From a virus, in IMG/VR virus record IMGVR_UViG_3300027741_000001: a stretch of 64,000 bases of DNA. One strand, given 5' to 3'. Each line of letters begins with the position of its first letter. Within the stretch, counting starts at the first letter, position 1. This document shows positions 28,858-61,841 of the stretch, piece after piece. The notes under the pieces were generated by a model that searched no databases, was not told where the DNA came from, and saw nothing but the letters and a program-made list of their open reading frames with translations. The translations under genes and the position numbers were made by a program.

Positions 28858-31800
28858 TTACTTATTCTCCCAGTTCAATAGTGACATCAGCAGACCGATT
28901 CCAAAAGCTTTTAGATCCCAGTCGGTGTCATTGGAAGGATCTAGTCCTTCAATTCCAGTGATCAGCTTAGGATCGATTTTAGTTGTCATAGTGGCATTAG
29001 TGTACCAAACGCCAGTTGCTATATCCATGTGAGCATCGCTGAATCTAGTAGTTTTTTTGCCTTTTCCAGTTTTCACGGTTACACCATTTGGAGTAGAGAA
29101 TCTACCGGGATCGGTAAATAGATCTTGCATCGTAGTAGTTATAACTTCAGCACTGTGGTTATTAGGACTAAAAGTAGCAAACTTACTGGTAGAACGAGGG
29201 TATACTTTCACAGTATAAGGATCTGCCACTTTTGCTCCAGAAAAAGATTCTTCCATCCATTTTTCATAAACTTCCATTGAAGGAATAATGTTGCTGCTAT
29301 CAGCTGTTTTTATTCTGTCATAAGAAAAAGCGTGTTCTAAAGCTGCAATGTCATGGTTGATCATCTGGAAGAAATGCCAAACTTCATGTAAGTAGTCATC
29401 AGTCGAGTCTCCACGGAAGAATCCTCCGTCACCCTGCTCTTTTTTCCATCTCAATGAATTTATTAAATTTTTATTTTTCCAGTGTTGTTTAAATTGCGCA
29501 CGTGCATCGGAAATTTGAACTCCAAGTTTTCCACCAGTATGAGCTAGATATTCCATTCCAGCTAGAATAATATCCTTAGGAACAAAACTAAGAGTTTCTT
29601 CTAGATTTTTAATAAGTTTCTTATTTCTATCTATTCTAATATCCTGGAATTTTTCATTACTATTAACATATTTGTAGTCTTTATATTGATTAAAGAACTG
29701 ATGTGCAGGCACCGAGTCAAATTCAACTCCAGCCTTTTCCATCTGAGATTTAATATTTTTACCAATTATAGAATGATATTTATTAGTAAAATCTTCTGCT
29801 TTTGGAGAAGCTCTAAGCCGATCTCTTACTTCCTTTATTTCAGTTGCTTTCTTGGCAAGGTCTGATGTGTCAATTTTACCTGTTCGAATAGCCCATTTGG
29901 TAAGCAGACTTAGGATAGTTTCTCCGCCCTCGTGTGCTCCCGTAACATCTATTAAAGCTCTTACTTCTTCTACATCTTTAGTTAATCTTAAAGTTTTTTT
30001 ATTTCTAACTCTTTGTAGCACAGTTTTACCAGTATCAAAAATAAACTCTGAATATGGGGTAGCATAATCATAAGCAAGTTTATGGGAAAGGTCATCCCCG
30101 TACTCAACTAGAAGCATATTAAAAGTTTCTTCTGCACTAAAAACATTTACATCTTTACCAGATAATTCTTTAGCAGCCTCTTGTTTTAAACTTTGGAATA
30201 TCTCTTCTTTATCTTCATAAGAAAGTCTATTGAAAGCATTTCTCATAAGATCTTGAGACATAGCTCTAAACTTACTGTCTCCCCTAAGTATTTCTCCGTT
30301 TAAGGATTTAGCATCATTCTCTAGCTTTTTTCTATATTCTTCAGCAGTAAATCCTTCAGGAATAAGACCTTCAGCTCTAGCTTGCTCATCTGAGATAGCT
30401 CTAGCATCATCTAGAATCATATGTCCTAGGCCGATTATTTCATTTTTAATAGCGGTAGCCTGATCAGATGGGGCTACTGCATCTTTTTTAGGAGATCCTT
30501 CAATCTGTACTACAGGACCATCAATCGCTATGCTTATGTCATTTTTAATTTTTCCAGGAGTAAACCCGATACCACTAGAAGCAATGTCCTTAGCCGCAGA
30601 TGCAATAATTTGTTCTCTAGAACCTTCCCTGTTTTGGCTAGGTTTATTATTATTTTGAATACCAAGTTTTTCTAGCATACCCTTTAGAAGATCAATAGCA
30701 GCTTTTTCTTTTCTTTCATCAACAGTAGCAATCTGATCATTGATCCAGTCCGCAACTTCTTTATGCCTTCCAATACCATCTTCGGATATTATCATTCCAG
30801 CATATGCTTCCGCTAGATATTCTCCTTCATCAGTAGCTGCATAGTCACTTAGAGGATATTCAGTCATAAATCTACGAAGCGTATCTTTCGTAGCCTGATC
30901 GCTAAAATTAATGATACCTTTTTGTTCAAGAACGTGTGCTATTTCGTGAGCAATTGTAGACTCTAGCTCTGTAGCATCTGCCCTAGGATTTTCAGTTAGT
31001 TTAGGGTTAGGTTTATTATCTTCTTCGTTCAAAATTTGACCATTAACAAACATGTGAGGAAAAGACAACCCAGCTAAGTTTCGGCCACGAGTACCATCAT
31101 CTCTAGTAAATGGCTTGAAAAAATCCTCTATATTAGGATGAGTAACAATAACTTGAAGCTCTTTTACAGGGAACTTAAATTTAACTCTAGATAATACATC
31201 CGAAAGTTTATTTGCAAATTTAGCCACTCCAGCAGCTGTAGCAGCTCTGTATTCGGTATTTACATTTGTTTTACCATTTTTCTTAGTTGGATTAGTTATA
31301 AATCTAACAACTTTAATAGTCACATTATTATCTTTATTTATATAGATATCGTGATGAGGAAGCAACATATGCTCCTCATCATGCCTATTAATTAAAGGAA
31401 TTATATGCTTAGTAAGATAGACCTGAGCATTAATAGATAGATTGTCACTACTAGCTCCATCTCCCTTAACAACACCCATGTACCACGTGTAAATAGCATT
31501 TTTTTCAGCCATCGTTAAGTTATCAGTTTCTACATCTGCTGCTAACCACTCTGGCTTTGCATCAGGAAGAGGTCTAGTTCTCTGATCTCCGGCACCAGAT
31601 AAAAGTGCTGTAATAAATGTTCTGTGTAGCTCGTTTAAGGAAATAGGTTCCTCGACTGGATTAGTTTGACCAGATCCTTCAGGAAGTTCATTTTCTTTAG
31701 CATCTAGTTTTTTCTTTTTTGCAAACTCGGAGATAACCCAGTCAGAGTTTTCTACACTATCATCAACGTTGATAGACGGAATCTCTCTATTTTGTGATGG

Positions 31801-34800
31801 GCCAGTGACATTAGGAGTACTCCTGTTAAATTCAATAAGATTATCAAAAGCGTTTTTATCTTTAGGAAGCTGGTCCACTAAATAGGAGATTACTTTATCT
31901 GCGTTCTCAGCGATAAAAGTTTTTTGATCAAGTACTTTATGAGAATCATCACTAGTAGCAGCCCTTACTAGTCTATTTTTTCCTGCCAGTAGAACTACTT
32001 CAGCTTCTTCAAAGCAACCAAAACCTGTGCCGGGAATAGAAAGTACCTGCTCAACAGGAATAATAGTTCCCATAAACATTCCGGCTCTTTCTTGCAACCT
32101 ACTAGTAGCAAAGTTGAAAGCATCACCGTGAAGCCAGGCCCAAGCTGACATAGGTCTTTGCAATATTTCAGCATCTCCTATGCCATTATACTCAATACCG
32201 GTATCTATTTTAAAAGCTTCTTCGTCTACTCCAGTACCTCTGTAAAGAGTTAAGTATTTTATTCCATAGTTTTTAAATCGATCCTGGGTAAGATCGTACA
32301 TAGTTTTTAAGAAATCTTTAAGAACAGAACTGTGGATTCCATAGTAGTATTCTGCATTTTCTAAAATATCTTTTGTATACTGGGCGTTTTTACTTTGAAC
32401 TTTCCATGGGGCCCACGAACCAGCAGGCATTTTAAATGTCTCAGCAGCAGCAATCTGTAAAGCGTGAGATAGCATATCACTACCATTAGATGTCTCTGCC
32501 CACTGCGCAACAAGTATTGAAGCGGCTTTTTCTTTAAATGCCTCTATGTCTTCCGGATTGTCAAAGAAAATTGGTTTTTTATTTTCATTTGCATAGTAAT
32601 CGTCAAAAAGAGTTTTATAGTCAATAGTTTTTTCATCGTAAGGGTTTCCGTACAGTTCTTCATCGTAAGGATCCATGAAATCTAGTACTTCTCTTAGAGT
32701 TTCTATATGTAATCCTTCATATGGAGAGTGCTCAGAGTCATCAATAAATAATATAATAGAATTTCCATTTAAATTATCCGATTTACTATCTAAAGCTTTT
32801 AGAGCCATCTTTTGACTATCTAGATAACTCAACCTAGATCTGACTACCTGACTGATAGATATGGCATGATCCAATGCTCCCAAAATATCTTTGGGAGAGG
32901 ATAACATATTATTACCTATATTTTTAGCGGCAATCTCTTTTAATTGCTCAGAGGCTCCGCCCATATGTCCAATTGAGCTATCTATATCAAAAGCATCCGG
33001 ATCGTACCACGTAGCAATCTCATTAAGTCCAGTCTCTTCATTCTCAGCCATAAGCTCATTTAAAAGATCAGACTGTATTTTAAGTACGTCTGTAAATCCA
33101 GGTACATCCTTTGGATCCAAATTGATTCTAGGGTATAAAAGATCTTCGTCATTAAATAGGTGGTATGGATTTATAAGTGATCCATCCTTAACATTCTTGA
33201 AGTTTTCTAGACTTCCATCCTTATTTAGAACTACATCTCCGACTCCTCCGGATCTTTCCATTGTAGTTGGATTTTTAAAGTCCACAGTGCTAACGCCAAC
33301 TACAACAGGCACATACTCTCTTCCAGCTATACGTGCAGCTTCAACCCTATGATTTCCTTCTGCAATAAAAGCTCTTCCAGTAAGAGGGTTGTACCAAACT
33401 AGTACCGGCTCTAAGTAGCCAGTTCCGTCTTCGAGGTCATGGGCTATAGAAGATGTACTGCTCTCCATATCTGCAAGATTGCCTTTCATTGTGGCAAGCT
33501 TTTCAGTTCTAACATAACCCAGTGGATTACCGCCATTACCTATTCCATATATTTTTACACCTTTGCCAGTCCATTCAGTAAGGTCTAGGTCTGGGTCATT
33601 CTTGTCTCTATAGGAGTTATTTAGAGGAATTACTTCAAGATATTTATTAAGAATAGTAGGCTCTTCAACATTTTCTCTATTTTGATTAGGTCCATAGTCA
33701 ATTTCATCGCCATCAAGCTTAGGCTCTTCTACAGGAAGACCCTTCTCCTTAAGAAGATCAATCTGTAGTTGCTTAGATTCTAAAGAATCGTGTACGTCTG
33801 GTTTTCCAGCATCCACCGAGTTAGAAAAAGCTTTACCGTACATGGTAAGAGTGCTTGAGTGGTTAACAGGTTTACTGTAGTGCTTACGAGCTACATACAA
33901 CATTGCTGTTGCAAGACCGCGGCGTCTATATTCATCATTGGTAAGTACTAAACCAATTTTAGCAGCAGCATTAGGATCTTTTTTGTCATCATCATCTACT
34001 CTTAATGAAGCTATATGAAGAAATTTTCCACCAAATGTATCTACATTTTCCATACCCTCAGGTGTAAAGTTGGGTGCTAAGAATCTACCTTCAAGATCAT
34101 GTACGGTTACCAGTACACTTTTATCGCTACTGCTGTCAGTGTTTATGTCAGTAAGGATCATATATTTTCTACCGTACTTATCAATAAATTTATCTGTGTA
34201 ACGGACAAACCCAGTAAACTTTTTAGGTTTAGATTTACCTAGAGTAACTTGATCAGCGATGGTTTCCATATTTGTTTTAGAATCTGGGTTAGCTACAGTT
34301 GTGAATTTAGTGTACTCAAATCTCCTAGAAATTTTAGCTGCACGTATTTTTGAGTCATCTCCCGAAGCTATGGCATCTTCTACATTTTTATTTTCCCAGT
34401 CCATGATTTTTTGCTGTTTTGCATTAAATGGAGTGCCGTCGGGCAGCTGAGTGTAATCATAATTATAGATAGTATCTAGATCAAGAGTACGATCATTAGG
34501 ATCAAAAGGCTCAGGCGGATACTGGTTCTCACGGTTTTGAGAAGGTTGATTATTAGATAGAGTAACCTTTGATTCATCATTTCTATGAAGATCAGGGTTA
34601 GGGTCAACTGAAAGAGAGAATGCTCTACCAAAAGAGGTTAACATTTCTGAGTGCTGGACTTCTTTTCCAGAACGCTCTCTTGCTAAGTGAAGAGCTGCAG
34701 TAGCTAGACCTCTTCTTACATATCTATCTGAAGTGTAGACCATGCTAATTTTGTTATTAAAGACATCTAATGAAGACACAGGAGTTCTATCTTCTGAATT

Positions 34801-37800
34801 ATCTTGAAGATCTTGTAGGGAGTTTTTACTCTTATCGTAAAGCTTTACGTTTGACATGCCGAGGCCGTTTACTACCTTGGTAACTACCCAGTACTGTCTG
34901 CCGTACTTGTCAGTAAACTCATCAATATACTGAGTACTCTGCTTGTACTCTGGTGGTAGATCTGCATAAGGTTTACCGGCACCGCTGTAGTTCATTCTAG
35001 AAGTATTGTCATCTAGAAGTCCCACCTGATCTTTAATACTTTCAAGATTAGTGCCAGACTTTAAGTTTGGTTTAGCGGTGTATCCCTGATAGATACGTCT
35101 TCTTTCAGCAATACGCAGTTTTCTTTCAAAATCATCAGGTTCATTGTCAATCGCATCTTTAAGAATATCCATTTGTTGCTGTTGATAAACATTGAATGGG
35201 GTACCATCAGGCATTTGAGTATAATCGTAGTTGTAATACTTCTCTAAATCAATAGTGGGATCTGTAGGATCAAAAGGTTCTTTCTTGGCTTTGTTTCTCT
35301 TGAAAAATCCTTCACGGTTTTGAGATGGTGCATTGTCTTCCTGTAGTTTTATAGACTTCTCGTTATTGTGCAGATCAGGCTTACCAGGGTCAATGCTGTT
35401 AGAGAAAGCAAATCCCATGCTAGAAAGATTATCTGAGTGAATTACTGGAAGTCCTAATCTCTTTTCTAGAACAGCAACCAATGCTGTTGCTATGCCTCTT
35501 CTTTGGTATCTATCGGTAACCATTACACTTTGGATTTCAGACACAGATGGGTCTCTAAATATGTAGGAATCGAGTCCTCCGACATCATTAATTCCAGACA
35601 CAGGTTGATCTTTTCTTACATAATCTTCAGGTAGAGGCATACCTTCAAAGTTTTTTTGGTCGTAGGCTACTACAGTCTGACGTCCAGAGCTTTCGTCTAT
35701 GTTAGTAACTATGTAGTATTTTCTACCATATTTATCGGTAAACTTATCCACATATCTTGTGTAAGTTAGTCCACGAGCTTCATCAAAATACTTTACAGCT
35801 GGCTTATCGCTAAACTCTACCTGTTTAAGAATGCTATCTCTTGTAGTAGAAGAGCCTTTGGTAGGCTTAGCAATTATTTGCTGATATAAAGTTCTTCTAA
35901 AGTTTTTTAAATTCTTTACAGCAAAAGAGTTAGCATCTTCATCATTATTTTTAAGAATGTTTTCTAATCTTTTAGCTATTGCATCCATCTGCTGCTGCTG
36001 ATCACTATTAAAAGGAGTGCCATCAGGCATCTTGGTATAGTCATAGTTGTAATACTCATCTAAATCTGCTTTTTTATCTCTAGGATCAAAAGGCTCTGGA
36101 AGGTACTTAGACTCTTCTTCCTTAGGAGCAGACTCTATTTTTTCAAAGTGCTTGTCAGCAGCTGGCCATAGATTGCGTAGCATTTCTTCAGGCATACCTT
36201 GAGCAGTAGGCTTAGTCATAAAGTCTGAGAGCTGGTCTCTACTAGTGAACATTCTCAAGAAATCGTCAACGTTGGTAGAAAGATCCCAGCTGCTCTGTTT
36301 AATCCAATCTGCATTTTCATCGCTGTTATCGATGTTTATAGGTTTTTCAGCACGTTCTCTATTTTGAGAAGGCTTGCTTTGTTCTTGAATTACTGTCTGT
36401 CCGCTTACTGGATCGTTAGATACAATTTGATTTCTTTCGGCTTCTTCTTTAATTGCCGCTTCTAGATCGCTATTATCTCTATTTCCAGGATATGAGTGAT
36501 ATGAGAACAAAGCTTCTTTTATGTCCCCGCCTAAAACAACAACTTCACGTTCATCCATAGATCCAAACCCAGATCCAGAAAATGATATAACTTTATCGGC
36601 CGGAACTATTGTAGCCATAACTACTGCATTTTTACCTGGCGAGTTCATTGCAAAACTCTCTGCTTTATATCTATTAGTTGACCATGAAGATAGTGGCCTC
36701 TGCTGTACAGTGCCTGAAAATACTCCAGTAGACCCTAAATTATTATAAATTTCATTTAGTTCTGTAGAGTCAGATCCCCTATACACAATAAACCCATCAA
36801 TACCCTGATCCTTCAGCAGATCTTGAGTAGCGTTATACATTGCATGTAAGAACTGTGTATAAATAAGTCTGTGATCTTTAACTTCTTGATCAACCTGATC
36901 TTCATAGTGGTTATTTAAATCTATTAAATCTTTTACTTCATTAGGAACGGTTCCCTGCTCCCTATAGATATCTACATTGTATTGATTCATGCCTCTAACA
37001 AAGCTCCACTCGGATGTGGCTTTAGGGTCCATAGCAAATATATCTTTAGCTACTTTTTGCATAGCATGAGATTTTATGTTTTTATCATTAGAAGACAGTG
37101 CCCATGAGTGAATTAAATTAGAAATCATTATTTTCTTCAGATCATTTACATCTTCCTGATTAAAACTTGAATGTACTCTTAAAAACAATTGATCATTTAT
37201 AAACTTTATAATACTGTTTGAATCTGTATTGCCCATTTTTTCTAGAACAGAATTCATAAGTTCTTTATTTACAGTCAATATAGATATAGTTGACAGACTC
37301 TTAACTTCATTAACATTAGTGACTAAAAGTTCTGTATCTTCTTTTATATCGGATAGATCTGCATTAAAAGCGTTGTATATTGATGAAGATGCAGGGCCTG
37401 AAAGACGAGAAAAAAAGGCCTCTTTTGCTATACCGTTGTAGTTCATGTAATGCACATCCATGCGGCTAGATGCATTAAATAGTGGAGAATATCCACCGCT
37501 CATAGCAGCTTTAAGCAAATCATCAAATCTAGCATCTGGCATATACCTAAGAAGTCTTGCAGCTGCAACTTGCTTAAGCAGGATAGATTGAGAAAACTCA
37601 GACGTTGAGCTAAACAGATCGGATATAGAGTCGCTTGCGCTCAGATCGTCTATTTCGCCATTTCTTACAGCATCTTCTACAGCTGAAATATTTGTCTTTT
37701 GAGTAGCTGTAGTGATATTTCTTTCAGCACCCTCACGGTTTTGGTTAGGGTTAGACTTTTCTTTAGCTGATTGAACGTCACCTAGATCACGGATCTTGTC

Positions 37801-40800
37801 GTCATAAACGTTACGGATTTGCTCTAGGTCATTGCCACTTGTAGCGGAATCTTCGTAAAGTGAGTTTAGCTTCTTAAGCTCATTGTAAAGTTCTTTAGCT
37901 GCAGCTTTGTAGACGTTCTTGTCTGCACCAGGCTGGTTTCTAAAGTTTTCAATTGCATTTTCAAGATTGTTTTTAAAGGCACTTAGATCATTCTCTAGAT
38001 TTCCATTGTAAGAAGCATTTTCTATAGCTTCAGGAGCTACCGAAGTTTTAGGTAAAGCTTTACTTCTATTAGAAATAATATTTCTGATCTCATACTCATT
38101 TTGAGTGTGGAATACATTATCTAAGGAATATGACTCTTTAGAGTCGTTGATGTTTACAATTTCAGGATTTTTATTTCCATCAAGCCTGAGTTGATATCCC
38201 CACTCAATAAAGTCTGTTTTATCCCTAAAAGCTGTAGGATTAGGCTTTTTAAATACTTGTAGCGTTATCTTTTTAAGATTTCCATCACTATCAACAACAA
38301 CTAGATCATCTCCCTTGTTGATTATTTTACCGTCGGCACCCCTGTGTATAGGGTTAACCTCGGCACCATTACCTGAAGAGTAATTATCTATATATTTTTC
38401 AAAATTATCTAAATAATCTGTACTAGACATTATCTTTTTAAAAGCTATTTCTAGATCTACATAACGAATAAAGTCATCTATATCTTCAGGGTTTAAAATC
38501 TTTGCTAGCTGATTAACCTTATCGTTTGCATCTTTTTTAGCAGCATCAGGATCTTCAGTTCTTTTACTTCTGTGGATGAAATCATAGACTTTTTTAATAG
38601 CATTGAACAGTCTGTAACCGTCTTCACGAGAGATCTTGTCTGGAGTCTCTTCCGAGGTAGGCTCTTTTACAACTTCTGGCTTAGGCTCAACCGGTTTAGC
38701 CTTAATAGCTTTTTCAATATCTTTTTTGTCTTTAGGGCTAAAAGCATTGAGCTTAGTAAGCATATTGAAGTTATATGTAGTTTCTTTCCCGTTAGGACCT
38801 CTTACGGTTAGCTGAACAACTCTACCTAGAGTATCTTTCTTAACTACAACTCCAAGAGCATAACCATCTGGACCATAGATAGTCCACCCAACGTCTACTT
38901 TTTCTGCTAGATATTGCTTAGCTGTTTCCTTGGTTATTTGAGTTGGGCCAAGATCTTTAGGAGTTTCTACTGAAGTTACAGGAGTCGCGACAGGTTTTTC
39001 CGGCTTCTCTTCAACGGGCTCTTCTGGCTTTTCTTCAGCAGATTTAGCAGTTTCTGCCTCTGCCTTAGCTTTCTCATCCCACTTTCTCTGTACTTCAGCC
39101 ATCTTAGCTTCTTGAACTGGAGCAGTAGCGTCTTCATCCATTTTTGGATCAGTGCTGGTTGGCTTGAAAGCATCGTAGATCATTTTAGGGACGTCAATCA
39201 TGCCGCCTTTTTCATCTACGTAAAGGAAGTACTTAATAGGCCCCCAGATATTTTCTGATTGACCTTTGACAAAGTCGACGTCTTTAAGATTTTGACTCTT
39301 GCGCCTACCAATAGCAAATCTGCTGTAAAGTTCACGGTAGGTCATTACTTCGCCATTCCAGCGAACTTTTTTGTCTAGGTGGGCTTTAATTTTACCTAAT
39401 TGCATTGGAGATAGAGCATCAAAGTCTAGAACTCCGCCAGCGGTCTCAATAACATTTTTCTTAGGCTCTTCTGTAGGCTCAGCTGCTGGCTCTTCTACAA
39501 CTTCAGGCTCATTTACAACTTCTTCAACGTCAGACTCAGAGATGCCATCTTCTACTTCTATATCCCTAAAGAGGTTGTCAAAGTTGAAGTCTAGAGGATC
39601 GGTTGGTTTGCCGGCACCTTCCTTCATACCCTTATTAGTTAGTACATTGAGCTGCTTCATTGCATCGACAAGTTCAGCTATTCTCTTAGCAATAGCTTTT
39701 TTCTCATTTTCATCTGTTGAAGAACTTCTAGTGTTGTTTAAAATATCCTTATAATCGCTAAGTTTTTCATGCAACATTACAACAGGATACGGGCTAAGCT
39801 CTTGCTTCAAACGCTTAGCTTCGCGTTTCATGTTCTTGCCTCGTTTAGCGGCTAGATACTTTCTGTAAAGCTGGCCAACTTCAGTCCAAGCATCTATATT
39901 AGCCTGACGTTCTTCCTCGGTAAGTTCCTTAGGTTCTTCTTCTACCTTAGTTTCGGCTACAGGTTCAGTAGCAGGCTTAACGTTCTGGTTCTCGTCAGAG
40001 TAGCGAGCTAGGCCGGTTATTCCACCAAACTTAGCCAAAAACTCTTCATCATTAACAAAGACATTATCGTAATACCCGCCCTGTGCACGGTTAGGTTCTT
40101 TAATTTCAAAAACTCTATTTCCGTTTTCATCGGTCTTAACGGATACAACTTGTGCATAGAAGTTAGGACTAGTTTCTTCGCTTTTAGTTCCCTTCCATCT
40201 AGTAGTTGGAGGGAAGTGCCCACCATACATTAGGTAGTCGCCAGATTGAATTTGATCTAAAGATTCTAAAGGAATGTATTCGGATGTGTAAGGGTTGTTA
40301 TTTCCACCATTTTCAGCTATTGCATTAGCCACCATTTTTCTGGCTTCTTCTACAGCTTTTTTCCAAACTTCCGGATCATTAATATCTCCTGGAACCTCGG
40401 CATTTCTATAGTCAATAAGTCTACGTCTAGACATATCTTCTCGCCATTTGTTATTTAATAAGCTTATTCTCCAACCAGCAACTCTTCCCTTTTTGTTGTA
40501 GCTATTAGGCTCGATCGCTTCTTCGTAATAGATCTCTGCTCCATAGCGAAGTCCATCTTTTGCACGAACGTCGGGATAGTCTGCTTCGTGCTGGAATCCT
40601 TCTCCATTTATTACATATTTAGCGTAAGGTTCTCCCGCACCTGCGGGGAACATTTGAACATCATCCGGTAGAGGGAAGTTATGCTCGCCAGTTATTTCTT
40701 TTGATTCGGTTGTAGGAGTGGTTTCTTCTTCAACAGGCTGTTCTTTTTCATCCTCATCATTTAATTTAAAGAATTTAAAACCATACTTATTTTCTAGTTC

Positions 40801-43800: not shown

Positions 43801-46800
43801 GTGTCTATCTTGACGTATTACTACAACTTTACCGTGAAGATTTCCATCCTTGTCATATACAATATCTCCAGGTTTGACATCTTCAGGCTTCTTTACATCT
43901 GGAGTTCTAGCTTTTCCGCCTCGTGGAGTAGTAGTTTTTTTACCTTTACCTTTTTCTTCTTTTTTAGGGGGGTTTACTCTTTCAGAGTTTGCAGTCCAAT
44001 GGATCGGTTCTCCGTGGATGTAAGGCTCAATTGCAACTTTCCAGAATTGGCCAATATTAGGTAGAATGCTATCCTCTCTATTGTGAAATGCAATAAGAGC
44101 TGCTGCAAATAATTCAGCCATTCTTTCATCAAATGCATTAGGATTTATTTTTGGATCTAAATCTGCATTTGGGGTAACTGCAAATCTCTTGAATGGTTTA
44201 GCATCTGTACCCCAGAACATCTTTTTAAGGTCTCCCCAAAGAGGAGAGTTAACCAGTTTTCCATGCTTTTCTCTATTCCAGAGGTGACCTAGCTCGTGAA
44301 AGAATACGTGCTGAAGTGCAGGAACAAATCCTCCAGGATTTTGACCGTAATATTCTTCTTGTCCCTGCTCATTTATTCCTTTGAAGAGTCTTCTTTTGTC
44401 AGCTTTATCCAGATTATGCAATTGATCCCAAAGAATCAAGTGCATAGTACCATCAGGTTCGGTGTGAGACTCCCCGGTTAAGCATCCAAGCTCGGGGTGG
44501 TCCTTATCAAAACCAATGACTTCACCCTCAGTAAAAGCTGGATCTCCTTGCTTAGCAATTTTAATTCTTACAGGGAGTTTAAATCCAAGCTTTCTTGCAG
44601 TATCTAGGTATCCTTTAAGTTCATCTAGAAGTTGACCATTTATGTCAGACTGCTTGTCAAATTCAATAGTAAATTCTCCATAGCGAAGTATGACTTTTTC
44701 ACCGATACCCTGTAAATTCTTATAAGTAGCAGCTGCAATAGCATATTCTTTTTCATTTATATCGGTTCTGCCTTCTGGATCTTTAAGACGTGTACCTTTA
44801 CGAGACTCTCTAAGAGCTTTCCAAAATAGTTTTACAAAATCGTCTAAGTTCCCAGCAGACTCGTACATATCTTTATACCAGGAAGGGTATCTCTCCCAAG
44901 AATCGATACGATCGTAGCCAACCGGAATATATTGCTTAGGCTTTTTTGTAAACTTTTTCTTTAAAAAGTACCCTCCAGCTTTAAGTTTAGCTAAAAATTC
45001 CAATTCTTTTTTGTTAGGTACGCCATTGCCCTCACCTAGCTCACCGCCACCGCCTCCACCACCGATTCTAAATTGGTTAGGAGTGTTGTTAGTTCTATCT
45101 TTATTGGTGTTTAGCCGAGCTAGAACCTCTGCAGCTTTACCTCTGGTAGTTGCTTCATTAACAGCTTTTTTAGCTTCGGCAGCAATCTCTTGATTTTCTG
45201 AGCCAGCAAGTTCATTGAGAGCATTTAGTTGGGCTTCAGTAACTGGATTATTTCCAGATATAGAGTTTTTAAACGCAGCCATACGTTCTTGGTAAAGCTT
45301 TTGCATTTCCGGAAAATTCAATAGACGCATATCTTGATTGTCTTCAGCAGCAGCTCTATCGACAATCTTTGAGACTAGGTTGAATGAATCTTCCGCATCT
45401 CCATCAGCTGAGTGCCAGTTAGCAGGTTCAAAACCTAAGAAGTTTGCAACTGGGCCAAGGCTGGAGCTGGCTCTTACTTCGCCAGTCTTGCGATCTGGAG
45501 CCTTAGGACCGTCAGTGCCTTTTTCTGGATCGTACTTAGGCAGAAGTGAGGCAAGATCTTTTGAGTCAACGGTTCCGGCAATGTTTAACTTGATACCTGA
45601 ATCATCAGCCATACGCTGTAAAATCTCTAGATCAAATGGAACGTTCTGTCCACCAAGAATAGCATTAGGACCTATAAACTCTAAGAACTGTTTAAGAGCT
45701 TCTTCAGGACTCATTTGCTCTTGAAGCCATTCTGGAGTTACAGCAGTGGTTACAGGCTTTCCGTTTTCATCTCTAACAATATTGCCATCCCCATCTACAA
45801 CATCTCTCTTTAAGTTATTTGCAGACCATTCGGAAAGTTTGCTTCCAGGATTGATGTAAACGTTAAAACGCTTTATAACTTTTCCATTCTTAACTTGAAC
45901 TGCTCCAAGTTGAATAGGATCATTTTTGATACCCTGGCCGTCATAATCAGAGATACCAGTAGTCTCAAAATCAAAGTATGTTATTACCTGAGATTTTAGA
46001 CGTTCTGCAACTTGCTTCCAGTTCTTTGCACCAGCAAGAATTTTTTGCAAAACTCCAGTGAAAGCACCGGGGGTAGGTAGGCGTGCACCATTAGCGTCCA
46101 TAGTTGCTGATTGTAGATCAATTCCCAAATCAGCAATTGAAGATCCTTCTCTATTTTGAGCAGGCGCAGCTTCAGGAGTAGGCTTAGCTTCATCTTTGCC
46201 GATCCATGCTTGAATAGGGTGGTCAGCGGGGACGTTCATAATTGCACGACGTCCATTTTGGAACTGAATAAATATTTGCTTAGTGCCGTCAGCTAAAGTC
46301 TTAACATTGGTAATTTTTCCATACTGATCAGAACCTTGATCGTAAACAATATTTCCAGCAGCTAGATCTTTACCAGTAAGCGCAGTTGCGGTTTTCTTAG
46401 CAGCTTCTTCCTTGTAGTTTTCTGGATCTGGAAGATCGGCTTCGGCATCTTTAAGATCTTGTGGAGTCGGATCTTCTATCTTAAGAGTGTCTTCATCTTG
46501 AATGCCACCGTCTCCAACTTCATACCCTTCAGTATTTTTCCCTAACTCAATTCCACGCTTTTTTAAATATTCAGGGTCTAGTGTTGCAAGTACTTCTTCA
46601 GCATTATTGTATTTAATGTATAGAACTTTGCCAGCAAAATTAGGATCGCTAGGGTCAACTAAAACTCTTGCAAATTTACCATCTGGAGTTGCACCAATAA
46701 ATTTACCAATAACGCGGGCAGTTCTACCTGCATCATTTCCTCTTTTTTTACCTAAACGAACTTTAGCTTTAATACCGCGACCCATTTCAACCCAGCGACC

Positions 46801-46914: not shown

Positions 46915-47117
46915 TATTCTCCGCCATCCTTAAGGATGTCTACCCCGATTAAACGTTGCAGCTCCTCATTGGCGGCTTTAGAGCCTTCTAAAGTTAGGTT
47001 TACTAGTTGCTCGATTGAAAGAGATGAGTATGGCACTTTTTTAACAACGTGCTCATCATTTCTATAAGACTCTACGGTAAGCATAGGCTCGGCCTTAGAC
47101 TTTTTATTTTCGTCCAT
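46914..47117 (-). CDS. Small hypothetical protein (67 aa)
   Basis: Stop overlaps the GTG start of the giant gene; RBS agga. Confidence 0.65.
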   Translation of the reverse strand: MDENKKSKAEPMLTVESYRNDEHVVKKVPYSSLSIEQLVNLTLEGSKAANEELQRLIGVDILKDGGE

Positions 47118-47134
47118 TTATATATCCTACGTAG

Positions 47135-47287
47135 TTATTCTGACGGAGTGTTTTTAGGAGTAGGCTCTGCTACATCCTCTTCACCACTATCATATAGGAA
47201 ATCTGGATCGGGGTTTGGGAAAGAGATAGCAGTCCAATACTCTTCATCTTCAGGAGTATAGTGATCAGGGTTTAAATAATTTTCCAT
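47135..47287 (-). CDS. Small acidic hypothetical protein (50 aa, below the ORF-track cutoff)
   Basis: MENYLNPDHYTPEDEEYWTAISFPNPDPDFLYDSGEEDVAEPTPKNTPSE*; RBS GAGGAG upstream. Confidence 0.65.
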   Translation of the reverse strand: MENYLNPDHYTPEDEEYWTAISFPNPDPDFLYDSGEEDVAEPTPKNTPSE

Positions 47288-47324
47288 GTAAATACTCCTC
47301 GAAATAGTTAATAAGTCTGTAAAT

Positions 47325-47333
47325 AGTATACCA
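47325..47333 (-). promoter_or_regulatory. Extended -10 promoter element between the two giant genes
   Basis: Minus strand TG-G-TATACT in the intergenic gap. Confidence 0.5.
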
Positions 47334-47355
47334 AAGTATCTGAATAAAGACTTAA

Positions 47356-50300
47356 TTAACCACCAAGAAGTGCTTTAAGTTGATTAAGAATATTGACTCT
47401 ATCCTCAGGATCAGCTAGACTAATGCTCCAGTTGTTTGCTTTTCTATCCCAGAAGAATGAGAATGGGATCTTCTTATCTTTAGGTACTAGTGAAACACTC
47501 TTGATTAGATCTTTAGCAGCCATAGTATCACCCATCAGGAAGATTCTATTACCTTCGATTCGATAGTTGACACCGCCTCCAAGACCTCCAGAAGATCCAT
47601 CTTCACCAGTTACTGGCTCAATTGGCATGGAGGTAGCTCCAGGCTGATTAGTTGGATCATACTCTTCATCTGGGTTATCTTCATAGTAGCCAGCTAGGAT
47701 GTAGTCAACTGCCTTGCTTGCCATAGAAGCGGCCTCAAACAAAGCGTTTGGCTCTGTTTCCAAGAATCTCTTCCAAGACTGAACATAAGCAGCCACGTTT
47801 TCAATACTGGTGTTGATCCCAAACATAGAAGCTAAAATAGCTGCTCCAATTTCTGCAATAAGTTCTTCACGAGCACGGACATCCTTGTGCTTACCGTAGT
47901 TATCTAGAAGATCTTTACGATCTAGACGCTGAGGGTCTCCAGTACTGTGGACCAGCTCGTGGAACAAAGTATCTAGGTGCTCTTCAGTGCTATTGAACTG
48001 TTCTCTTAGAGGCAAGCTGACTGTGTCCGTCTGAGGTGACCAGAAAGCTGAGTCTCCAGGGGCATATTGGATGTTAGGCCCGCCTGTGTAGGAAGCAAGG
48101 ATGATATCCTCTACCTCGTGCATAGGAGGTGGGTCTTTTCTAGGAAGTGGTGGAATAGTAATACCCTTAACCACATCTTCGTTATAGACAACATCAATGT
48201 CGAGTCTAGTCTTGGTTCTAGAACCATCATCCGGCTTCTGGTCACCAGTCTTTGGGTCAATGATAGTTTTGGTCTCATCTGGCTTTACAGTGTACTTACT
48301 CTTCACAACCTTGGTTATAAGCACGCCATCGTTTTCGTCTACGTAGCCACCAAGCTTAGCAATAGCGTTCTTTGTATACCAGCGAGTACCTTTGTAGCCT
48401 CTGAATTGGCTTAGAACTTCTAGAATAACTAGGTTTCCACCCTTGTAGTTCTTACCAGTAGCGCCTGATGTAGGTAGGTAAGATCCACCGCCAGTCCAAG
48501 GCTTCTTCCAAGGAATAATTCCCTTATCCATAGCCTCGGTAATTTGAGCCATAACCTGATCTACAGCATCTTTATTGCTCTTTATAGGTTTGCTATTTTC
48601 GCGGTTTTGAGAAGGACCGTTGTCTTCTAGGTCTTTCCAACCAAAAATTGCCTCGGAAGCTCCAAAGATTCCAGATTTATTTGCCACTTCAGAGACCTTC
48701 ACGAACTTGTCACCATTTTCGTCAGTGTAAAGTTCTACTCTCTTATTTGGCAAAGCTGATCTGAGTTGAGCCACGTACTCTTCCGGATCTAGTCCATTAG
48801 GAATAGGGTCAAGAACAGGAGTCTCGATCTCGGCTGTCATTCTTTCAGCAGCGTGAACTGCCTCTGTGAGTTCCTTTAGACCGCGTTCTCCGCCAGGATA
48901 TTGAGGATCTCTAGAGATAGGCTCAAGAGACATCTGGTAATCGTACTCAGCTTGAATAGCTTCGTCATAGGCTGCATTAATCTCTTCTTCAGACATTACT
49001 GGCTGCTCAGATGCAGATTTATTAGGAGTTGAATCTGAATCTGATTCAATAGCTTTTGCAACTATATCTAAGCTAGACTCTTTGACGTTTTCTGGATCTG
49101 ACTTAGCATCTATGCTATTATCCCCTTGGAAAATAGTAGTTCCGTTTTTACGAACTTGGATAGCATCATTAGAGATAGTAGCTTCATACTTGCCATCAGG
49201 AGAACTCCAAGTGTGCTTGTAGTCATTTCCTTCAGGTCCACCTAGATATTCGGTATTCCAGTTAGCAGTGTAGTCATACTTACTGTCAGGGTTGGTAGCA
49301 CCTTCACGGTTTTGAGACGGGCCTCCGATAACCTTTTTAGCCTGCTGGCCATTAACATATGATGCACCGCCACCGCCATCAATAGCTTCAAAGAATACGC
49401 TAACTTCATCGGAATCGTGACGACTTATCATCTTGATTCTCTTGTTTCCCTTAGCAGTAACTACAGTGTCACCCTTTTGTAGAGTATTAGGGTCTACTTC
49501 TACAATTTCAGGTCCTGAGCTTTCAGTATTCTGTGAAGTAGGTTGATCAGGGCTCTTATCAGACCTAGCTTCTAGCTGGCGTAGGTAATCCTTACGCTTT
49601 GACTTGAATTCTTCTATCTTACCATCTAGCCAATCCAACATTCCAGGATCTAATTCATCCATAGTTCTAGTTACAGCAACGTACATAAGGTTCAATGCTT
49701 CTGTAGTAAGAGATCTAGGCATATTGCCCTTCTCGATAGCGTCAGCATCTTTTTGTGGGTTAGGCTTGAACCATGTTCCTGAAAGTTTAACTTGTTTAGC
49801 TTCTAGTCCCTTGGCTCGGTGAGCAGTTAGAACTACGCTGTCGACATCTGCACCACTTAGAGCGTCTACAAGAGCGCTTAGTTGCTCAGATCCATTTCCT
49901 TGAACAGGAGTGGTCCAGTCCCAAGTCTTACCTGTATCCCATGTGTATCCCATTGAAGATAGAGTGTCAGAGTTATTCTTAGTTCCATTATTTGGATTCT
50001 TTAGCTCAGGTGTCCAAGGCTTTGCATCACCAGTATTGTAGAGACGGATAGCCCCATTTTCAATCTTGTAGCTAATGAAGTTTCCAAGATCTCCTTCGTC
50101 GCCCCAGTTGCCATCCGAAGGCTTTTTGAATCCTTGAATACCAATGATTCTTGCACCATCTACTGTCCGCTTTAGTTCAGCAAATACTGCCTTGCCATCG
50201 TTATCTCTTTCTTGCTCTTCTAGACGAGCTTGAGTCAGCTCCATAATGCCTAGCAATCTTCCTACTGCTGGATCAGAATCTTCTTGGTGAAGTTCAAGCA

Positions 50301-53300
50301 TTTGCTTCCAGCTGTCGTAGGAGTCTAAGTCCTCATGCGCATTTGATGGGCGATACTTAGGATTAGCACCAAAAAATAGCCACTTAGCTGTAGCCAAGAA
50401 ACTATTCATTTCAGCTTTAAATTCCCTAATAACACCAGCACGTTGACCTCTACCAACCATAGTCATAATTTCTAGTAGAGCATCAGCGTTGGTTGTGGTA
50501 AGAATCATGTCTGCATCTGTCATACTTCCAGGAGTTGCAAGACTTGAAGTCTTATTTGGATTTCCGACTAGACGTTCGTCATCCTCGTCCTTAATCTCCA
50601 AAACCTGGTTAGCAAAATCAGCAACATCCTGTCCGGCACGGAACATCATGGTTAGAGGTAGGGTTACCATTCTTCTAAACATATTTAGGCTGTTGACGGC
50701 TCCACGGAACTGATAGATAGATTGGTGAGGATCTCCAACAACAACAAGCTGTATGCCATTGTTGTGTAGAGTCTCTTGCTCATCCATAAGTCTAAAGAAT
50801 ACTCCGTTAACGTCCTGAGCCTCATCAATCAGAATAATGTCTGGGATTGCACCAAGACCGTGGGCGCTTTCTCCCTTAGAGTTAACTTCTTTTAGATTAG
50901 GGTGGCTAAGAGCAAAGTTCTTCATCATATCGTTGAAAGTTACAGGAATCTGACGAACGCTGTCATCGTGCGGCTCTAGTTTTTCTTTCCATATTTTCTG
51001 AGCTAGCTCTAGGAAGAATGGGGTATAAGCCTCAGGGCCTCCTATTTTTTCTCCAATTGCATCGTCGAAGTGTTTTCTTTCAATCATGTCATCTGCACTA
51101 ATAGTCCAGTTGTTTAGACCCTTAAGTGTAATTTTTACTGCTAAGAACTTAGAAATTCTTTTTCCATTACCTAGCTCTACTTCGTTTGGAATCTTGAAGT
51201 AATCAGCTATATCTAAAAAGCCATTGATCGGTCTATTTTTTGCATCCGACTGCTTCTTCATAGCAATAAACTTCTTAGAAAGTTTGCTATTTACAGGAGC
51301 TTTGAAAGATACAGAGTCCATAGTTCTAATTTCAGTATTTCCAGGGAACTTAAGTCTGTTCTCATCTGCAATAGCTTTGTTGAAAGCCATAGCAAGAATT
51401 CTCTTCTTAGGGAAGTAGTGAAGTATTGCCTTTGCAAGACCGATCAAGGTAGTAGTTTTACCTGTACCGGCTAGAGCCTTGATAACAACTGACCATCCAC
51501 GAATACCAGCTTCAATAGCGTCTTTCTGCTGATCGGTGTACTCTTTATCCAAGAATTCAATATCGTGTCTACCTGTAGCCAGCTCAGCCTTGTTCTTGGT
51601 ATCTTCAGGACGTTCTCTATTTTGAGATGGGGCATCGATAACATCTTGAGCTGCTTGCTCTAGTTTCTTAATAGCAGAGTTGATAGCACGCTTTTCTGCT
51701 GGACTACTAGTAGAGCTTAAAGCATCTTGCAAATTAGTCATAGCATATGAGAGCCGAGACAAAGTACTCTGCTGATTCACGCCTTCGCGAAGTTGACTAG
51801 GGCCACTCTTTTTGTGACGGTCAGGATATTTCTCATCTAGGTAAGCATTTAACTTATCTAGGTCATATCCAGTAGGGACTCGTAAGCCATCAACGTCTAG
51901 GTTGTTAGCAATGGCGTAGTCAAGTTCTAGACCGTCCATTTCCTTAACTAGATCACCGATTTCGTTAGAGTTGACATTTGGAAGCAACTTCCAGATCTCT
52001 TCTCTACGTTCCGCAGATACTATGTCTCTAGGATCCAATAGACGTCTTTCAACGCTCTTCAACTGCTTAGGGCTTGGTTTTCTGATCTTATTTAGTGGAT
52101 CATCAATAACGTTGCTTTCAGTAAGAGGTTGTTCACCATCGTCTGGCTTTGGAGGAAATAAGCTTGAGAAAGTAGGACGATCGTTTGTAGGAGTTCCTTC
52201 TGGAGATGTAGAGTTAAGAGCATTTCTTGCTTCTTGCTCTAGATCCTTAGGATCTGGTTCGTCTCCTCTAGCAGCTCTTTCAACAGCTCTATCAGCTATA
52301 AATTTTAAAGCACGTTCGACAAATGCTTCGTATCCTGGAATATACTTAGCAAGTTTTGCATCATAGTCATTATCTGAAGCATCGAGATCAAAGATATTGT
52401 CTTTAATCAAATCGGTTCCAGACTTAGCTCTCTTAAGCATCTGCCCTAGAAGTTTGACGTTAAGTTCTAGATCATTAGCTGCATTATGTAATGAATTACT
52501 AGGAATACCTTCGTATCTTCCTAAAGCTTCTAGAGCGGTAGAACCATGTATACCAAAGTCTCCTACCTTATATGGACCACCAAGGTTAGTTTTTTTGTTA
52601 AATACATTGTAAATGTGATCAGCTAGTCCAAGCGTGTCAATCATTCCAGCAGGAGAATATTCTGCTAGTCCAGCTTCTTTAAGAGTTCTATTTAGGACTT
52701 CTAAATCGTAATCAGCAACGTTGTGACCAGCTAAAACTGCGTCTGGTCCTAGAAATTCTAAAGCCTTAGCAATAACTTCACTCTTGGTTGGGAGACTTGC
52801 AATCCACTCAGGAGTTACTCGATTGCCTTTGTCATCCTTTATATTTGCCATAGACCATGAACTTAAAGGAGATCCAGGATTCATGTAGCTTATAAACTTA
52901 TCAACGATTTCTCCGTTTACAACTTTATATATAGCAATCTGAATTGGATCGTTTTTAACATGAGGCTGTAAAGGGTCAAAGATACCGGTAGTTTCAAAAT
53001 CAATAAAGTGTAGAACTTTATCTCTCAAAGCTTCAGTTACATCATCCCAGTTCTTTGCTCCAGCCATCCAGTCGCGAACAACGCCCCAGAAAGCCTTAGG
53101 TTTAACTCTTGCAGGAGGTCTAGGCTTATTTGGGTGGTTAGAGTAGTCAATGATTCCAGGAACTGGATCGGTGTCAACTGGGATCTCTGGAGATTCAACA
53201 GGATTTGGCTCAAATACCTCTGCTGATGTGCTGTGGTCTACTTCATCTTCTAGAGATGGGTCGTAATCATTTTCGAATGGACTATTGTGGTATCCATCTC

Positions 53301-56300
53301 TACCCATAACAGAGCCGACTTCAGCTGCAAGTTTTTCAAGAGTCTCTACGGTCTTAGGCTTTTTATTCTTAAGACGTCCGTAGGTGTGAGCATTATCTGA
53401 GTCAGTTAGACCCTTCTTAATAGTCTCTAGACGTTCCATAACCTTAGCAGGTTTGATTACGTACTTTCTACGTAGGTCAAGCATACGCTTAAGATCCCTG
53501 ATGTCGTCGACTGCTCCGTCGATGATTCTTCTACCATCGGCATTTACAAGATCTCTGTGATTAGCAACAAAAGCTGCTAAACGAGTCAGAGCGTAGCGAG
53601 ATCTACGAGCAGCATTCTTACGAGCTTGTCTATTAACATATTGCTTTACTTCTTCTTGATCTTTTTCTTCAGCAAGAATCTCTTTACGAGCTTCATCGGT
53701 TGGCTTGTAGTCTTCCCAGCCTTCAGGGGCATTAGGTCTGCCAATAAGATCCATCAGGTTTAGGTCATTAATAGACGCTCCGCCTTCAATGGCTTTCTTT
53801 ATTAGAATACTGTCGTGAGCATCTTCACGAGCTTTAAGTTCAGAGATGATTTGAGTACTTACCTCGTATACGTTCATCCTAGGAACGGCTTTGACAATTG
53901 CAGCAATTTCTCTGTCGCTTGCTAATCCCTTGTCAAAGATACGTTCGATGCTGGCAAGCATTCTGTCAGATGCACCGTCAAAATCTCTAGCAACTAGCCC
54001 GTACTTGTTCTTAGGCTTGTACTGCTCTTTGAATGGATGCTCCTTGAATGTGTAATACCATTCACGGATCTCGCGAGCATTCATGTCTTTGTAGTTGTCC
54101 ATAAACTCTTGGACTAAATCTTGAGGAATATCTCTATCCTCTAAGAATCTTTCAATACCAACAAGTTGGCCATCGCTAGGGCCCATAGCTTCTTGAGGAA
54201 CGTTGCTGCTAAGGTACTTAGGACTTTCAGTAGGCTGATCTGCTAGCCAGTAGTCAGGCTTACCGTTTACAGTGTTCTCGGCTGCTCTAAGTTTTTCTAA
54301 TTCAGCTATTTCTTCTGGAGTAGGTTCTGGAGCCTGAGGTGGTTTAAAAGGTAGACTATAAGCTTTTTCGTGAAGTTGATCGTACTCTGCCCTGGTTAGG
54401 GTGTTGTCATCGATCTTTTTTCTGATCTCTTCTGCTTCTTGTTTACTCCAGTTTTTGTTATCTAAAGCCCAATTTAGGAATGATTTTTGAAGCCATGAAG
54501 CCATGCCTTTTTCAGGTGAGGTAAGTTCACGGAAGTTCTTTTCAATATACGCTGCAAGATCATTTACTTCTTTTACAGTGTGCTCTTCAGGATTCTTTCT
54601 GATCGCTCTAACTTTATCCCAAAGCTCTGGCTCATCTTGAACGTATCTAGAGTTTAGGATTGCAACTAGACGACGGACCTGACCCTCGTTAGGAATGAAG
54701 TCATCATTAACTCTGTTTTGAGAAGGACCTAAATCTGTATTCTTTGCTTCTTTAGAATTTACATATTTTGTTAAAGCTGAGTGCAGTCTAGATACATAGT
54801 AGGTGTCATCGTTAAACTTGTTTGGCTCATCTTCGGATGCAACATGCATCTCGTAGTATATTTCTGCAACAGCTTTTCGAGTTTTTTCTGCACTTCTACC
54901 GTTAGTAATATCGAAATCTTTAAACTCCGAGTACAAACTGAATCTATGTAGATTATCTGGAAGTTTAAACCAGTCTCTAAGAGCTTGAGTAAGAACCTCA
55001 TTTTCATCTTCACCAGGATAGATAGGGTGTGTCTTTAGAGGACCCATGCGTTTATCTACAATTTGAACGCTTCTTAGGTTATCTCCAGAATCAACAATTC
55101 TGGCAGAAATATCAGATCTTGAACCCTGTCCAGCCCAAAAACCATTGTCATTAAACTTTGGAGTGGTAAAGTCTCCAGGATAAGTGTCCTGTAGGAACTG
55201 TGCAATGATTGCATCAGCTTTCTTGATCATGTCAGAACCTGGGCCGAAGTAATCGTACTGGAAACGTTCTGATGGGTCTAGCTTAGAATACATCTCTCTT
55301 TGGTAGTCCGGAACGTTGGCAATGTTAGGGTTAAACAGCGGGTCTAAAGCTTCTAGATATTTAATAGCATGGACCTGGTCTTCAACCTGCTCCCAGTTAA
55401 AGAATGGAACCTGAGTGTCCATAGTGAAGTCACTATTGCCGTCACGTTCGGTTAGGGTATACACACCGTCAGACATAATTGGTTGGAATGAAACGTCTCC
55501 AGTTCTTTGGTCATACACCAAAGCAACGTCTGATTGACCATATCCGTAAGTTACGCGGAATCTGCGATCTTTAGATAAGTATGTGTTGTCTCCAATTTTG
55601 TTCCAGCCTTCTGGCATGGAACCATCTGGATCATTTTCGTTTTTGCCAGTAGATTCTGGCTTAGGCTCTTCTTCTGGAGTTTCTCGGTTTTGACTAGGAA
55701 CAACTGCTTCTACAGCAGGTTTTTCTTCAGGAGTTAGATCCTGGTTATCTTTATCTCCGAAACGATCATCTTCATCTCCAGCAATCTTCTGTACGCCAGC
55801 CCAGTCTTGTGCAAAACCAATAGGGCTTTTATTTCCCTTAGCACGCTTTGAACCCCAAACAGTAATAACTGGCTTAGTCATGTCTAGGTTTTCAGTACCA
55901 TCGGTGCCTACTATTTCTAGGCTATCGCCATACGCTTCTTTAGCTTTTTCTACAAAACTTTCAGTAACTTTATTAGGCTTATTTACCACAGAAGCGGTGT
56001 AGCCATCAGCTGAATCGTAGACTGCGTCAGAGTGAAGTTCATTACCGGTAAAAGTTGAACTAGTCGGAGTATACGGACTCTTTACCCAGCCTTCTGGCAT
56101 ATCAGCAACAACAAGATCTTTAATATCAACAATGTCGTTATCATTTGGAACCGCTTTTCCAACTGGAAGATCTTTAACTGCTTCGGCAGGTAGAATAGCT
56201 GCAACGGCTTCAAAAGCTGACGCTGGAATTTTGTAAAGTCCATTTTTTAAACCCGGAATATCTGTAATTTCAAAGTCTATGTAGCCACCATTTTCAGAGT

Positions 56301-57054: not shown

Positions 57055-57071
57055 CGGAAAAATCTTTCTTA

Positions 57072-58229: not shown

Positions 58230-58246
58230 TGGATTTTCTCCTTAGT

Positions 58247-60052: not shown

Positions 60053-60090
60053 AATTTTCTCCTGTCATTAAGAGCGGAACGTTGCTATGG

Positions 60091-60378
60091 TTAAGCACGT
60101 GCGGCCAAGATTCCGACAACTGCAGACAGGGCAAAAGGTAATGCTCCGATTAAAGTTATCGTTGGTACTATTGTATATGAAATTGTGATTAGTGATGCAA
60201 CCCAGACGCTTGTACACCAGTCGCAGGTAAAGAGGTAGCCTAGCCTTGTGGAAGGCGGAAATTTTTTCCAAATCCACTGTCTAGGAGCGTCAAAAATGAC
60301 GTCGGTAGTAACTAGCCGAGTAAATCTAAAAGTGGCAAGGGCAAGAATGATGAACGTTAGGTATGGGTCATTAAGCAA
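60091..60378 (-). CDS. DUF1360-like membrane protein
   Basis: LALATFRFTRLVTTDVIFDAPR...LFTCDWCTSVWVA with hydrophobic helices. Confidence 0.75.
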   Translation of the reverse strand: MLNDPYLTFIILALATFRFTRLVTTDVIFDAPRQWIWKKFPPSTRLGYLFTCDWCTSVWVASLITISYTIVPTITLIGALPFALSAVVGILAARA

Positions 60379-60739: not shown

Positions 60740-60740
60740 A

Positions 60741-61247: not shown

Positions 61248-61253
61248 GGATCT

Positions 61254-61840: not shown

Positions 61841-61841
61841 T

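Follow-up and report, generated by a model that had tools for sequence, protein, structure and literature searches.

A lineage-specific peptide marks the module boundaries of two giant polyvalent-type proteins of an uncultured actinophage

The window analysed here is a 64,000-nucleotide part of the 113.7-kb IMG/VR record IMGVR_UViG_3300027741_000001, which represents an uncultured siphovirus, a lake actinophage. Its minus strand encodes two giant proteins, A and B, which are punctuated by the hexapeptide P[SNA]QNRE. The peptide is confined to these two proteins, lies in the linkers between their modules, and is replaced at homologous positions in related phages by other peptides, each common to both giants of a genome. 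The best and most economical reading of these sequences is that P[SNA]QNRE is where the two chains would be cut into about 20 separate effectors, to which we assign a probability of roughly 0.55. That the peptide separates the units of cargo polyproteins is well supported; that the chains are packaged and cut, and by what, we infer from gene order and from the comparison of lineages described below.

28858..46914, minus strand: giant protein A, 6018 amino acids (aa), at least 11 modules, 9 strict separators; homologues P0002-P0009
47356..57054, minus strand: giant protein B, 3232 aa, RNase_T, UvrD helicase, ArdC-N and MPTase-PolyVal domains, 4 strict separators; homologues P0010-P0018

A hexapeptide confined to two giant proteins

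Across the 9250 residues of A and B there are 13 copies of the strict form P[SNA]QNRE, ten of them exact PSQNRE; the count expected from composition is 0.0007, and 1000 shuffles produced no copy. Giant A has nine strict copies and one weak copy, PNQFRI, and giant B has four copies of PSQNRE along with the weak copies PSQNRV, PSQLRE and TSQNTE. All 17 hexapeptides had been listed in an earlier model-generated reading of the DNA letters (hereafter, the sequence-only reading), and each is present, in frame and on the minus strand. They are given here together with a relic, SAPKEE, that is discussed below.

55681..55698, minus strand: PSQNRE, B residue 453; in frame, aligned with relatives
54709..54726, minus strand: weak copy PSQNRV, B residue 777; class II genomes have a full copy there
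51784..51801, minus strand: weak copy PSQLRE, B residue 1752; class II genomes have a full copy there
51613..51630, minus strand: PSQNRE, B residue 1809; the UvrD domain starts 25 aa later
49522..49539, minus strand: weak copy TSQNTE, B residue 2506; in frame, aligned with relatives
49303..49320, minus strand: PSQNRE, B residue 2579; in frame, aligned with relatives
48598..48615, minus strand: PSQNRE, B residue 2814; ArdC-N starts 8 aa later
46147..46164, minus strand: PAQNRE, A residue 251; aligned in class II relatives with PSPKEE or PSPKQE
45064..45081, minus strand: weak copy PNQFRI, A residue 612; class II relatives have the full motif in the same column
42124..42141, minus strand: PSQNRE, A residue 1592; in frame, aligned with relatives
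37732..37749, minus strand: PNQNRE, A residue 3056; in frame, aligned with relatives
36355..36372, minus strand: PSQNRE, A residue 3515; in a low-confidence stretch of the AlphaFold2 model (predicted local distance difference test score, pLDDT, below 50)
36115..36132, minus strand: relic separator SAPKEE, A residue 3595; G002 has a live GPSPKEE in the same column; low-pLDDT stretch
35311..35328, minus strand: PSQNRE, A residue 3863; opens a stretch of pLDDT below 50 just where the final helix of a GNAT-like domain ends
34528..34545, minus strand: PSQNRE, A residue 4124; aligned with relatives, pLDDT below 50
33673..33690, minus strand: PNQNRE, A residue 4409; aligned with relatives, pLDDT below 50
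31783..31800, minus strand: PSQNRE, A residue 5039; in frame, aligned with relatives
30625..30642, minus strand: PSQNRE, A residue 5425; precedes the C-terminal zincin-like module

The motif had been seen in no other open reading frame (ORF), and a six-frame scan of the 113.7-kb genome bears this out: neither P[SNA]QNRE nor its relaxed forms P[SNA]Q.R. and PSQ were found in any ORF besides those of A and B. All 18-mers that encode PSQNRE in the complete relatives G003 and G005 (135 and 137.5 kb) are likewise inside the two giant genes, and a control with the reversed pattern gave zero hits. The tape measure proteins of the window genome and of G004 lack the motif, and no motif-like string was found in the capsid, protease and portal proteins.

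Synonymous codons differ at every position of the motif in every lineage, so it is the amino acids that are kept, and the separator is under selection at the peptide level. The sequence-only reading had argued the same from the spread of Ser and Arg codons, which we could reproduce. It had also noted that Gln is always encoded by CAA; this stands for the 13 strict copies of the window genome (13/13, with CAA making up 58% of Gln codons in the giant genes; p ~0.0008), but the motif of relative G003 has seven CAA and four CAG codons (4/11 CAG), so that CAA is not required and the bias is local to the window genome. A role of the motif as DNA micro-homology, which had been left as an alternative, is weakened by the free synonymous variation.

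The separators lie in linkers between enzyme modules

Pfam matches in giant B comprise RNase_T, UvrD, ArdC-N (PF08401, E 5e-16) and MPTase-PolyVal (PF18818, E 4e-28). Those in giant A comprise RNase_T, GNAT domains and an M78-like module, each confined to a single inter-motif segment, and Pfam did not find the hallmark domains MPTase-PolyVal and ArdC-N in this protein. On the strength of their domain content and their position beside head genes, A and B can be classified as polyvalent proteins in the sense of Iyer et al. 2017, and the notion of modular polyproteins in a head-gene block, put forward by the sequence-only reading, gains support from both. Its placement of ArdC directly after the last copy of the motif in B was accurate. 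Its ART and ParB labels, on the other hand, were not recovered by Pfam on the window's own protein, and ParBc was matched only in the homologues P0007 and P0009.

No copy of the motif lies inside any Pfam match of either giant. An AlphaFold2 model of A residues 3480-4450, computed from a shallow alignment (mean pLDDT 60), contains three GNAT-like domains; all four motif copies in this segment are in stretches with a pLDDT below 50, and two of the four begin just where the final helix of the preceding domain ends. The flanks of the motif are also depleted in hydrophobic residues (fraction 0.215 versus 0.292 overall), a value matched by 2 of 5000 random site sets. The linker position at module boundaries that had been proposed is thus upheld both by domain matches and by the model.

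Two further regularities accompany the modular layout. Three consecutive GNAT-like modules of giant A (residues 3601-4414; 33673-36132) open with EPFDP ... YNYDYT ... PDGTP a few residues past the separator. Close to their N-termini, both giants also have in common a conserved domain of some 190 aa (A residues 19-203, 46300-46860; B residues 202-358, 55980-56450), which heads the giant proteins of distant relatives as well, including gp70 of Microbacterium phage Zooman, and which may be a capsid-targeting or anchoring domain.

Concerted rewriting of the separator in related phages

Using the 1506-aa protein encoded downstream of giant A as the query, we collected 29 IMG/VR loci and added further DNA for four contigs. 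The separators of these and further relatives are grouped by class as follows: I, P[SN]QNRE; II, GPSPKEE or GPSPK[QEK]E; III, GFxQx[PA]G; IV, GPS[QP]S[KR]K; and V, [RG][FLM]SSG. Class I relatives keep the motif; in other relatives its alignment columns are occupied by GPSPKEE, GPSPK[QEK]E, GPS[PQ]KEE or GPS[QP]S[KR]K.

The close relatives L001, L002 and L007 retain P[SN]QNRE at matching places. Relatives with a protease 81-86% identical to that of the window genome have no PSQNRE and carry GPSPKEE, GPSPK[QEK]E or GPS[PQ]KEE instead. Genome G001 contains 19 exact copies of PSPKEE (6 in B, 13 in A) and G002 contains 19 copies of PSPK.E (GPSPK[QEK]E), in both cases in the two giants only. L005 has GPS[PQ]KEE, with both PSQKEE and PSPKEE present, and looks like an intermediate state. 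In four-way alignments, P[SN]QNRE of class I lines up with PSPK[EQK]E of G001 and G002 at no fewer than 12 sites whose flanks are conserved, such as DLEDNG-PSQNRE-NSKPIKS versus DLEDTG-PSPKEE-SPKKPIKS and DEIDYG-PNQNRE versus DEIDYG-PSPKEE. These flanks are 74-90% identical, yet the same three of the six residues differ between the classes at every joint. An identical three-residue change at every joint calls for either selection by a common partner or homogenisation of the DNA, and the codon spread speaks against the latter.

More remote lineages use other separators. A search of a large protein collection added class IV, which ends in Lys-Lys where classes I and II end in Glu; it occurs in P0016, in the neighbouring giant of the same genome and in P0054. 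The 53%-identical lineage G004 has a single giant of 4801 aa with 24 copies of GFxQx[PA]G. In the distant phage L061, a giant of 3988 aa (L061:2673-14639) begins with an S78 prohead protease domain, ends with ArdC-N and MPTase and is punctuated 15 times by [RG][FLM]SSG; three more copies lie in the giant that follows (L061:16213-22743, 2176 aa). Classes III and V have no Glu. In each genome, the separator peptide is always common to both giants. This concerted rewriting means that the motif behaves as a signal that is read. Still more distant relatives have only Pro/Glu-rich linkers, and no recurrent motif was found in the giant proteins of the relatives DSL-LC01 (a metagenome-assembled genome) and Microbacterium phage Zooman.

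The SAPKEE relic keeps the class II spelling in class I genomes. It lies seven residues before EPFDP, the sequence that trails the live separators of the next two modules. That a decayed site retained the old spelling indicates that only working sites were rewritten, and on this comparison the PKEE spelling is probably the older one.

The boundaries of the modules coincide with the separators on an evolutionary scale, too. Blocks of homology shared between lineages have separators at both ends, and giant B of G000, G003 and G001 terminates at a stop codon where that of G002 continues through a separator into one further module. That one lineage has a stop codon where another has a separator suggests that each module functions as a protein of its own. 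Distant relatives share too little homology with the giants for natural gene splits at motif positions to be recognised. P0008 (L054:4127-14341, 3404 aa) combines eight class II separators with one PSQNRE that precedes a class-I-type C-terminal module and is followed by class-I-like downstream genes; it may be a natural recombinant or an assembly chimera. A 1269-aa protein encoded upstream of the protease gene at L016:6124-9930 contains 10-13 copies of a KRNADAKAYGQG-like unit, which looks like a tandem repeat and not a separator.

Genomic setting of the giants

On the minus strand, the genes are ordered as follows: portal, ferritin-like/DUF5824 protein, giant B, giant A, the 1506-aa MuF-like/prohead-protease protein, major capsid protein and tail genes.

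58247..60052, minus strand: portal protein (phrog_776, E 1e-100)
57072..58229, minus strand: fusion of a ferritin/Dps-like domain with DUF5824, encoded between portal and giant B; kept in all relatives examined
23647..28167, minus strand: 1506-aa MuF-like/prohead protease/scaffold-like protein, with PHROG head-maturation-protease and portal-type matches; motif-free
21455..23503, minus strand: major capsid protein, motif-free; its N-terminal extension is acidic and about 280 aa long
20226..21383, minus strand: 385-aa gene after the capsid gene, with two deeply diverged alleles (~80% versus ~42% identical)

The structural proteins resemble those of actinobacterial phages, namely Microbacterium phages Pumpernickel and Zooman, Gordonia phages and the lake metagenome genome DSL-LC01. 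The N-terminal extension of the capsid protein is rich in Pro and Glu, its last 40 residues are invariant across lineages, and it is probably a fused scaffold. The G+C content of the giant genes (28001-56000) is 0.36-0.43 with a strong negative AT skew, and that of the flanking core head genes (16001-28000, 56001-64000) is 0.43-0.47, which suggests a different history or a different codon regime for the giants. The alleles of the 385-aa gene are spread across lineages independently of the other head-module genes; considered as a class-linked factor, this gene was rejected, as its two alleles are unlinked to the motif class.

A model for the separators

Combining these findings, we propose that A and B are polyvalent-type cargo polyproteins, each a string of enzyme or effector modules that number about 20 in all. 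The two genes lie between those of the portal and the MuF/protease protein, a placement that suggests loading of their products into the procapsid. P[SNA]QNRE would separate the modules as a short linear motif that sits in a disordered linker, immediately behind the final helix of the preceding module, and is read by a phage-lineage-specific protein. The likeliest reader would be an endopeptidase that cuts the chains into separate proteins, either in the capsid or after injection. Reader and sites would co-evolve, each lineage having rewritten all of its approximately 20 sites in both giants.

A more specific version of this model, to which we would give somewhat less than even odds, is that tailed phages of freshwater Actinobacteria deploy injected effectors as true polyproteins under a private code, in which a dedicated peptidase, possibly one of the uncharacterised zincin modules in the chains themselves, reads the 6-7-residue separator, enzyme and about 20 sites being rewritten together in each lineage. 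The spelling could then have passed from PSPKEE through PSQKEE to PSQNRE, or to PSQSKK. Such a code, if true, may keep competitors or host factors from reading the separators.

Candidate readers among the peptidases

The giants contain four HExxH modules, MPTase-PolyVal and three others.

47725..48075, minus strand: MPTase-PolyVal zincin domain, B residues 2994-3110; Pfam E 4e-28, 87% identical across classes
44284..44298, minus strand: HELGH of an uncharacterised zincin-like module, A residue 873; candidate reader, present in classes I, II, II' and IV
30934..30948, minus strand: HEIAH of an M78/IrrE-like module, A residue 5323; weak Pfam match to PF06114 (E 0.0017), nearly absent from the class II genome G001
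29374..29388, minus strand: HEVWH of the C-terminal zincin-like module, A residue 5843; candidate reader, class-divergent

The two uncharacterised zincin-like modules of A, at residues 873 and 5843, diverge sharply between classes, and the neighbouring modules do not. The first is 83-96% identical within class I and 36-51% identical to other classes; the second is 87% identical within class I, 34% to class II and 43% to class IV. The residue 873 module gave no match in Pfam or the Protein Data Bank (PDB). For the C-terminal module, Pfam gave no match and the PDB gave only weak non-peptidase matches outside the zincin core (Enkurin, E 4e-4). An Atlas search with both modules yielded weak leads only, to anthrax-lethal-factor-like and M90 families. 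As candidates, these two modules are favoured by the sequence comparison over MPTase-PolyVal and the prohead protease.

The prohead protease resides in the 1506-aa protein, which matches PHROG head maturation proteases with an E-value of 8e-56 and Pfam S78 with 0.0097, the latter below the cut-off. Its protease domain is 88% identical to that of class II and 86% identical to that of another class I genome. Of the 17 class-specific positions in the protein, three are in the protease domain (L796M, E873D and N1152R), and all three changes are conservative.

Several observations weigh against the reading of the peptide as a cutting site of packaged cargo. No candidate protease tracks the motif classes cleanly. 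The C-terminal zincin-like module fails to do so because P0053, which has class II sites, and P0008 both carry a class-I-type module. MPTase-PolyVal varies as much within as between classes around HELxHSTG and shows no class split, and neither does the prohead protease domain, with only its three conservative class-specific changes. An AlphaFold2 model of B residues 2560-3232 has a mean pLDDT of 48, too low to show docking of the motif in the zincin. Many MPTase-bearing relatives are devoid of any motif. Finally, our argument for packaging is one of gene position, that for cutting is one of sequence comparison, and no cultured phage is among the carriers of the motif.

Alternative explanations

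Alternatively, the S78-like prohead protease domain within the 1506-aa protein might make the cut while the chains are in the procapsid, in the manner of T4 gp21 and phiKZ gp175, an explanation that we consider unlikely even though the gene order would suit it, with the giants between the portal and protease genes, and even though the separators of classes I and II end in Glu. The S78 domain of L061 forms the N-terminus of a polyprotein that is punctuated 15 times, and SPN3US and phiKZ provide a precedent (PMC10052503). However, the capsid, protease and portal proteins would be expected to share the motif and have no string like it, the presumed maturation region of the capsid protein is identical across classes I, II and III, the protease domain does not follow the classes, and class IV separators end in Lys-Lys and class III separators lack Glu. 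The analogy with T4 gp21 and phiKZ gp175 that the sequence-only reading had drawn is a poor fit on all these counts.

Peptide-level selection would also arise if the separators were never cut but docked to a phage partner, such as the capsid interior, a scaffold or the MuF domain, so that a chain of megadalton size could be packed or kept ordered. Short linear motifs in general lie in disordered regions, stand out as islands of conservation and co-vary by lineage, as the separators do, and the ~190-aa domain shared by both giants and Zooman gp70 could be the primary anchor. Such docking seems distinctly unlikely to us, given that the obvious partners (the capsid N-terminal domain, the MuF/protease protein and the portal) are constant across motif classes and that the equivalence of stop codon and separator suggests modules acting as separate proteins; we also know of no precedent for twenty identical docking sites placed exactly at module ends. 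Nor does it appear at all probable that the peptide is an unread favoured linker, or a recombination junction that travels with shuffled modules. Homology blocks that end at the motif, a module order that varies between lineages, the hybrid P0008 with its PSQNRE and class-I-type module in a class II chain, and the invariant CAA of the window genome could all be taken as traces of such a junction, but it would explain neither the identical change at 12 or more sites, nor the free synonymous variation, which speaks against DNA-level homogenisation, nor the SAPKEE site left unrewritten. Eighteen nucleotides of imperfect identity are, moreover, short for homologous exchange. The slimmest chance of all we give to a modification of Ser (phosphorylation or glycosylation) in the Pro-Ser core, the sole element common to classes I, II and IV: the core is missing from classes III (GFxQxPG) and V (FSSG), no kinase or glycosyltransferase was detected in the block, and placement at every module boundary would be left unexplained.

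Comparison with known systems

The separators of cargo polyproteins described here have their closest counterparts in polyvalent proteins (PMC5512222). Like these, A and B combine many unrelated enzymatic and DNA-binding domains in one chain, with the hallmark domains ArdC-N and MPTase-PolyVal in giant B, and are phage-encoded beside head-morphogenesis and MuF genes. Iyer et al. 2017 predicted that polyvalent proteins are processed by zincin-like peptidases, but describe no conserved junction peptide (PMC5512222): the word 'linker' is absent from the text and the passages on cleavage name no site. In A and B, a strict separator marks the joints and is rewritten in concert between lineages. Polyvalent proteins are widespread, and such a separator makes their deployment accessible to experiment. 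From it the precise termini of about 20 mature effectors can be predicted, and it supplies natural pairs of site variants with which to find the protease. Module boundaries could also be annotated by it in giant phage genes without database matches.

Internal head and ejection proteins are processed by prohead proteases in several phages, including T4 (gp21, which recognises L/I-x-E), phiKZ (gp175) and SPN3US (gp245) (PMC10052503). The present system resembles these in having a short motif common to head-cargo proteins, a terminal Glu (classes I and II) and genes in the head module. It differs in that T4, phiKZ and SPN3US cut the same motif in capsid, portal and protease as well and mostly remove N-terminal propeptides, whereas here the motif lies between modules, is absent from the capsid, portal and protease proteins, and varies between lineages in which protease and capsid site are constant. 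The protease itself appears to be S78-like and not of the T4 gp21 type, and the joint change of protease and site specificity between lineages that would mark an HK97-type (S78) system was not observed.

The polyproteins of RNA viruses, in which a cognate protease such as picornavirus 3C or potyvirus NIa releases many mature proteins from one chain, bear a different kind of likeness to giants A and B. Both have a conserved site at each junction, a spelling specific to the lineage and embedded peptidase modules. Unlike picornaviruses and potyviruses, the present virus is a tailed double-stranded DNA (dsDNA) phage, its modules would be accessory effectors and not replication proteins, its putative readers have no homology to 3C or NIa, and its cutting is a prediction. 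If confirmed, the separators would represent a case of protease-site co-evolution, as seen in RNA-virus polyproteins, in a dsDNA phage.

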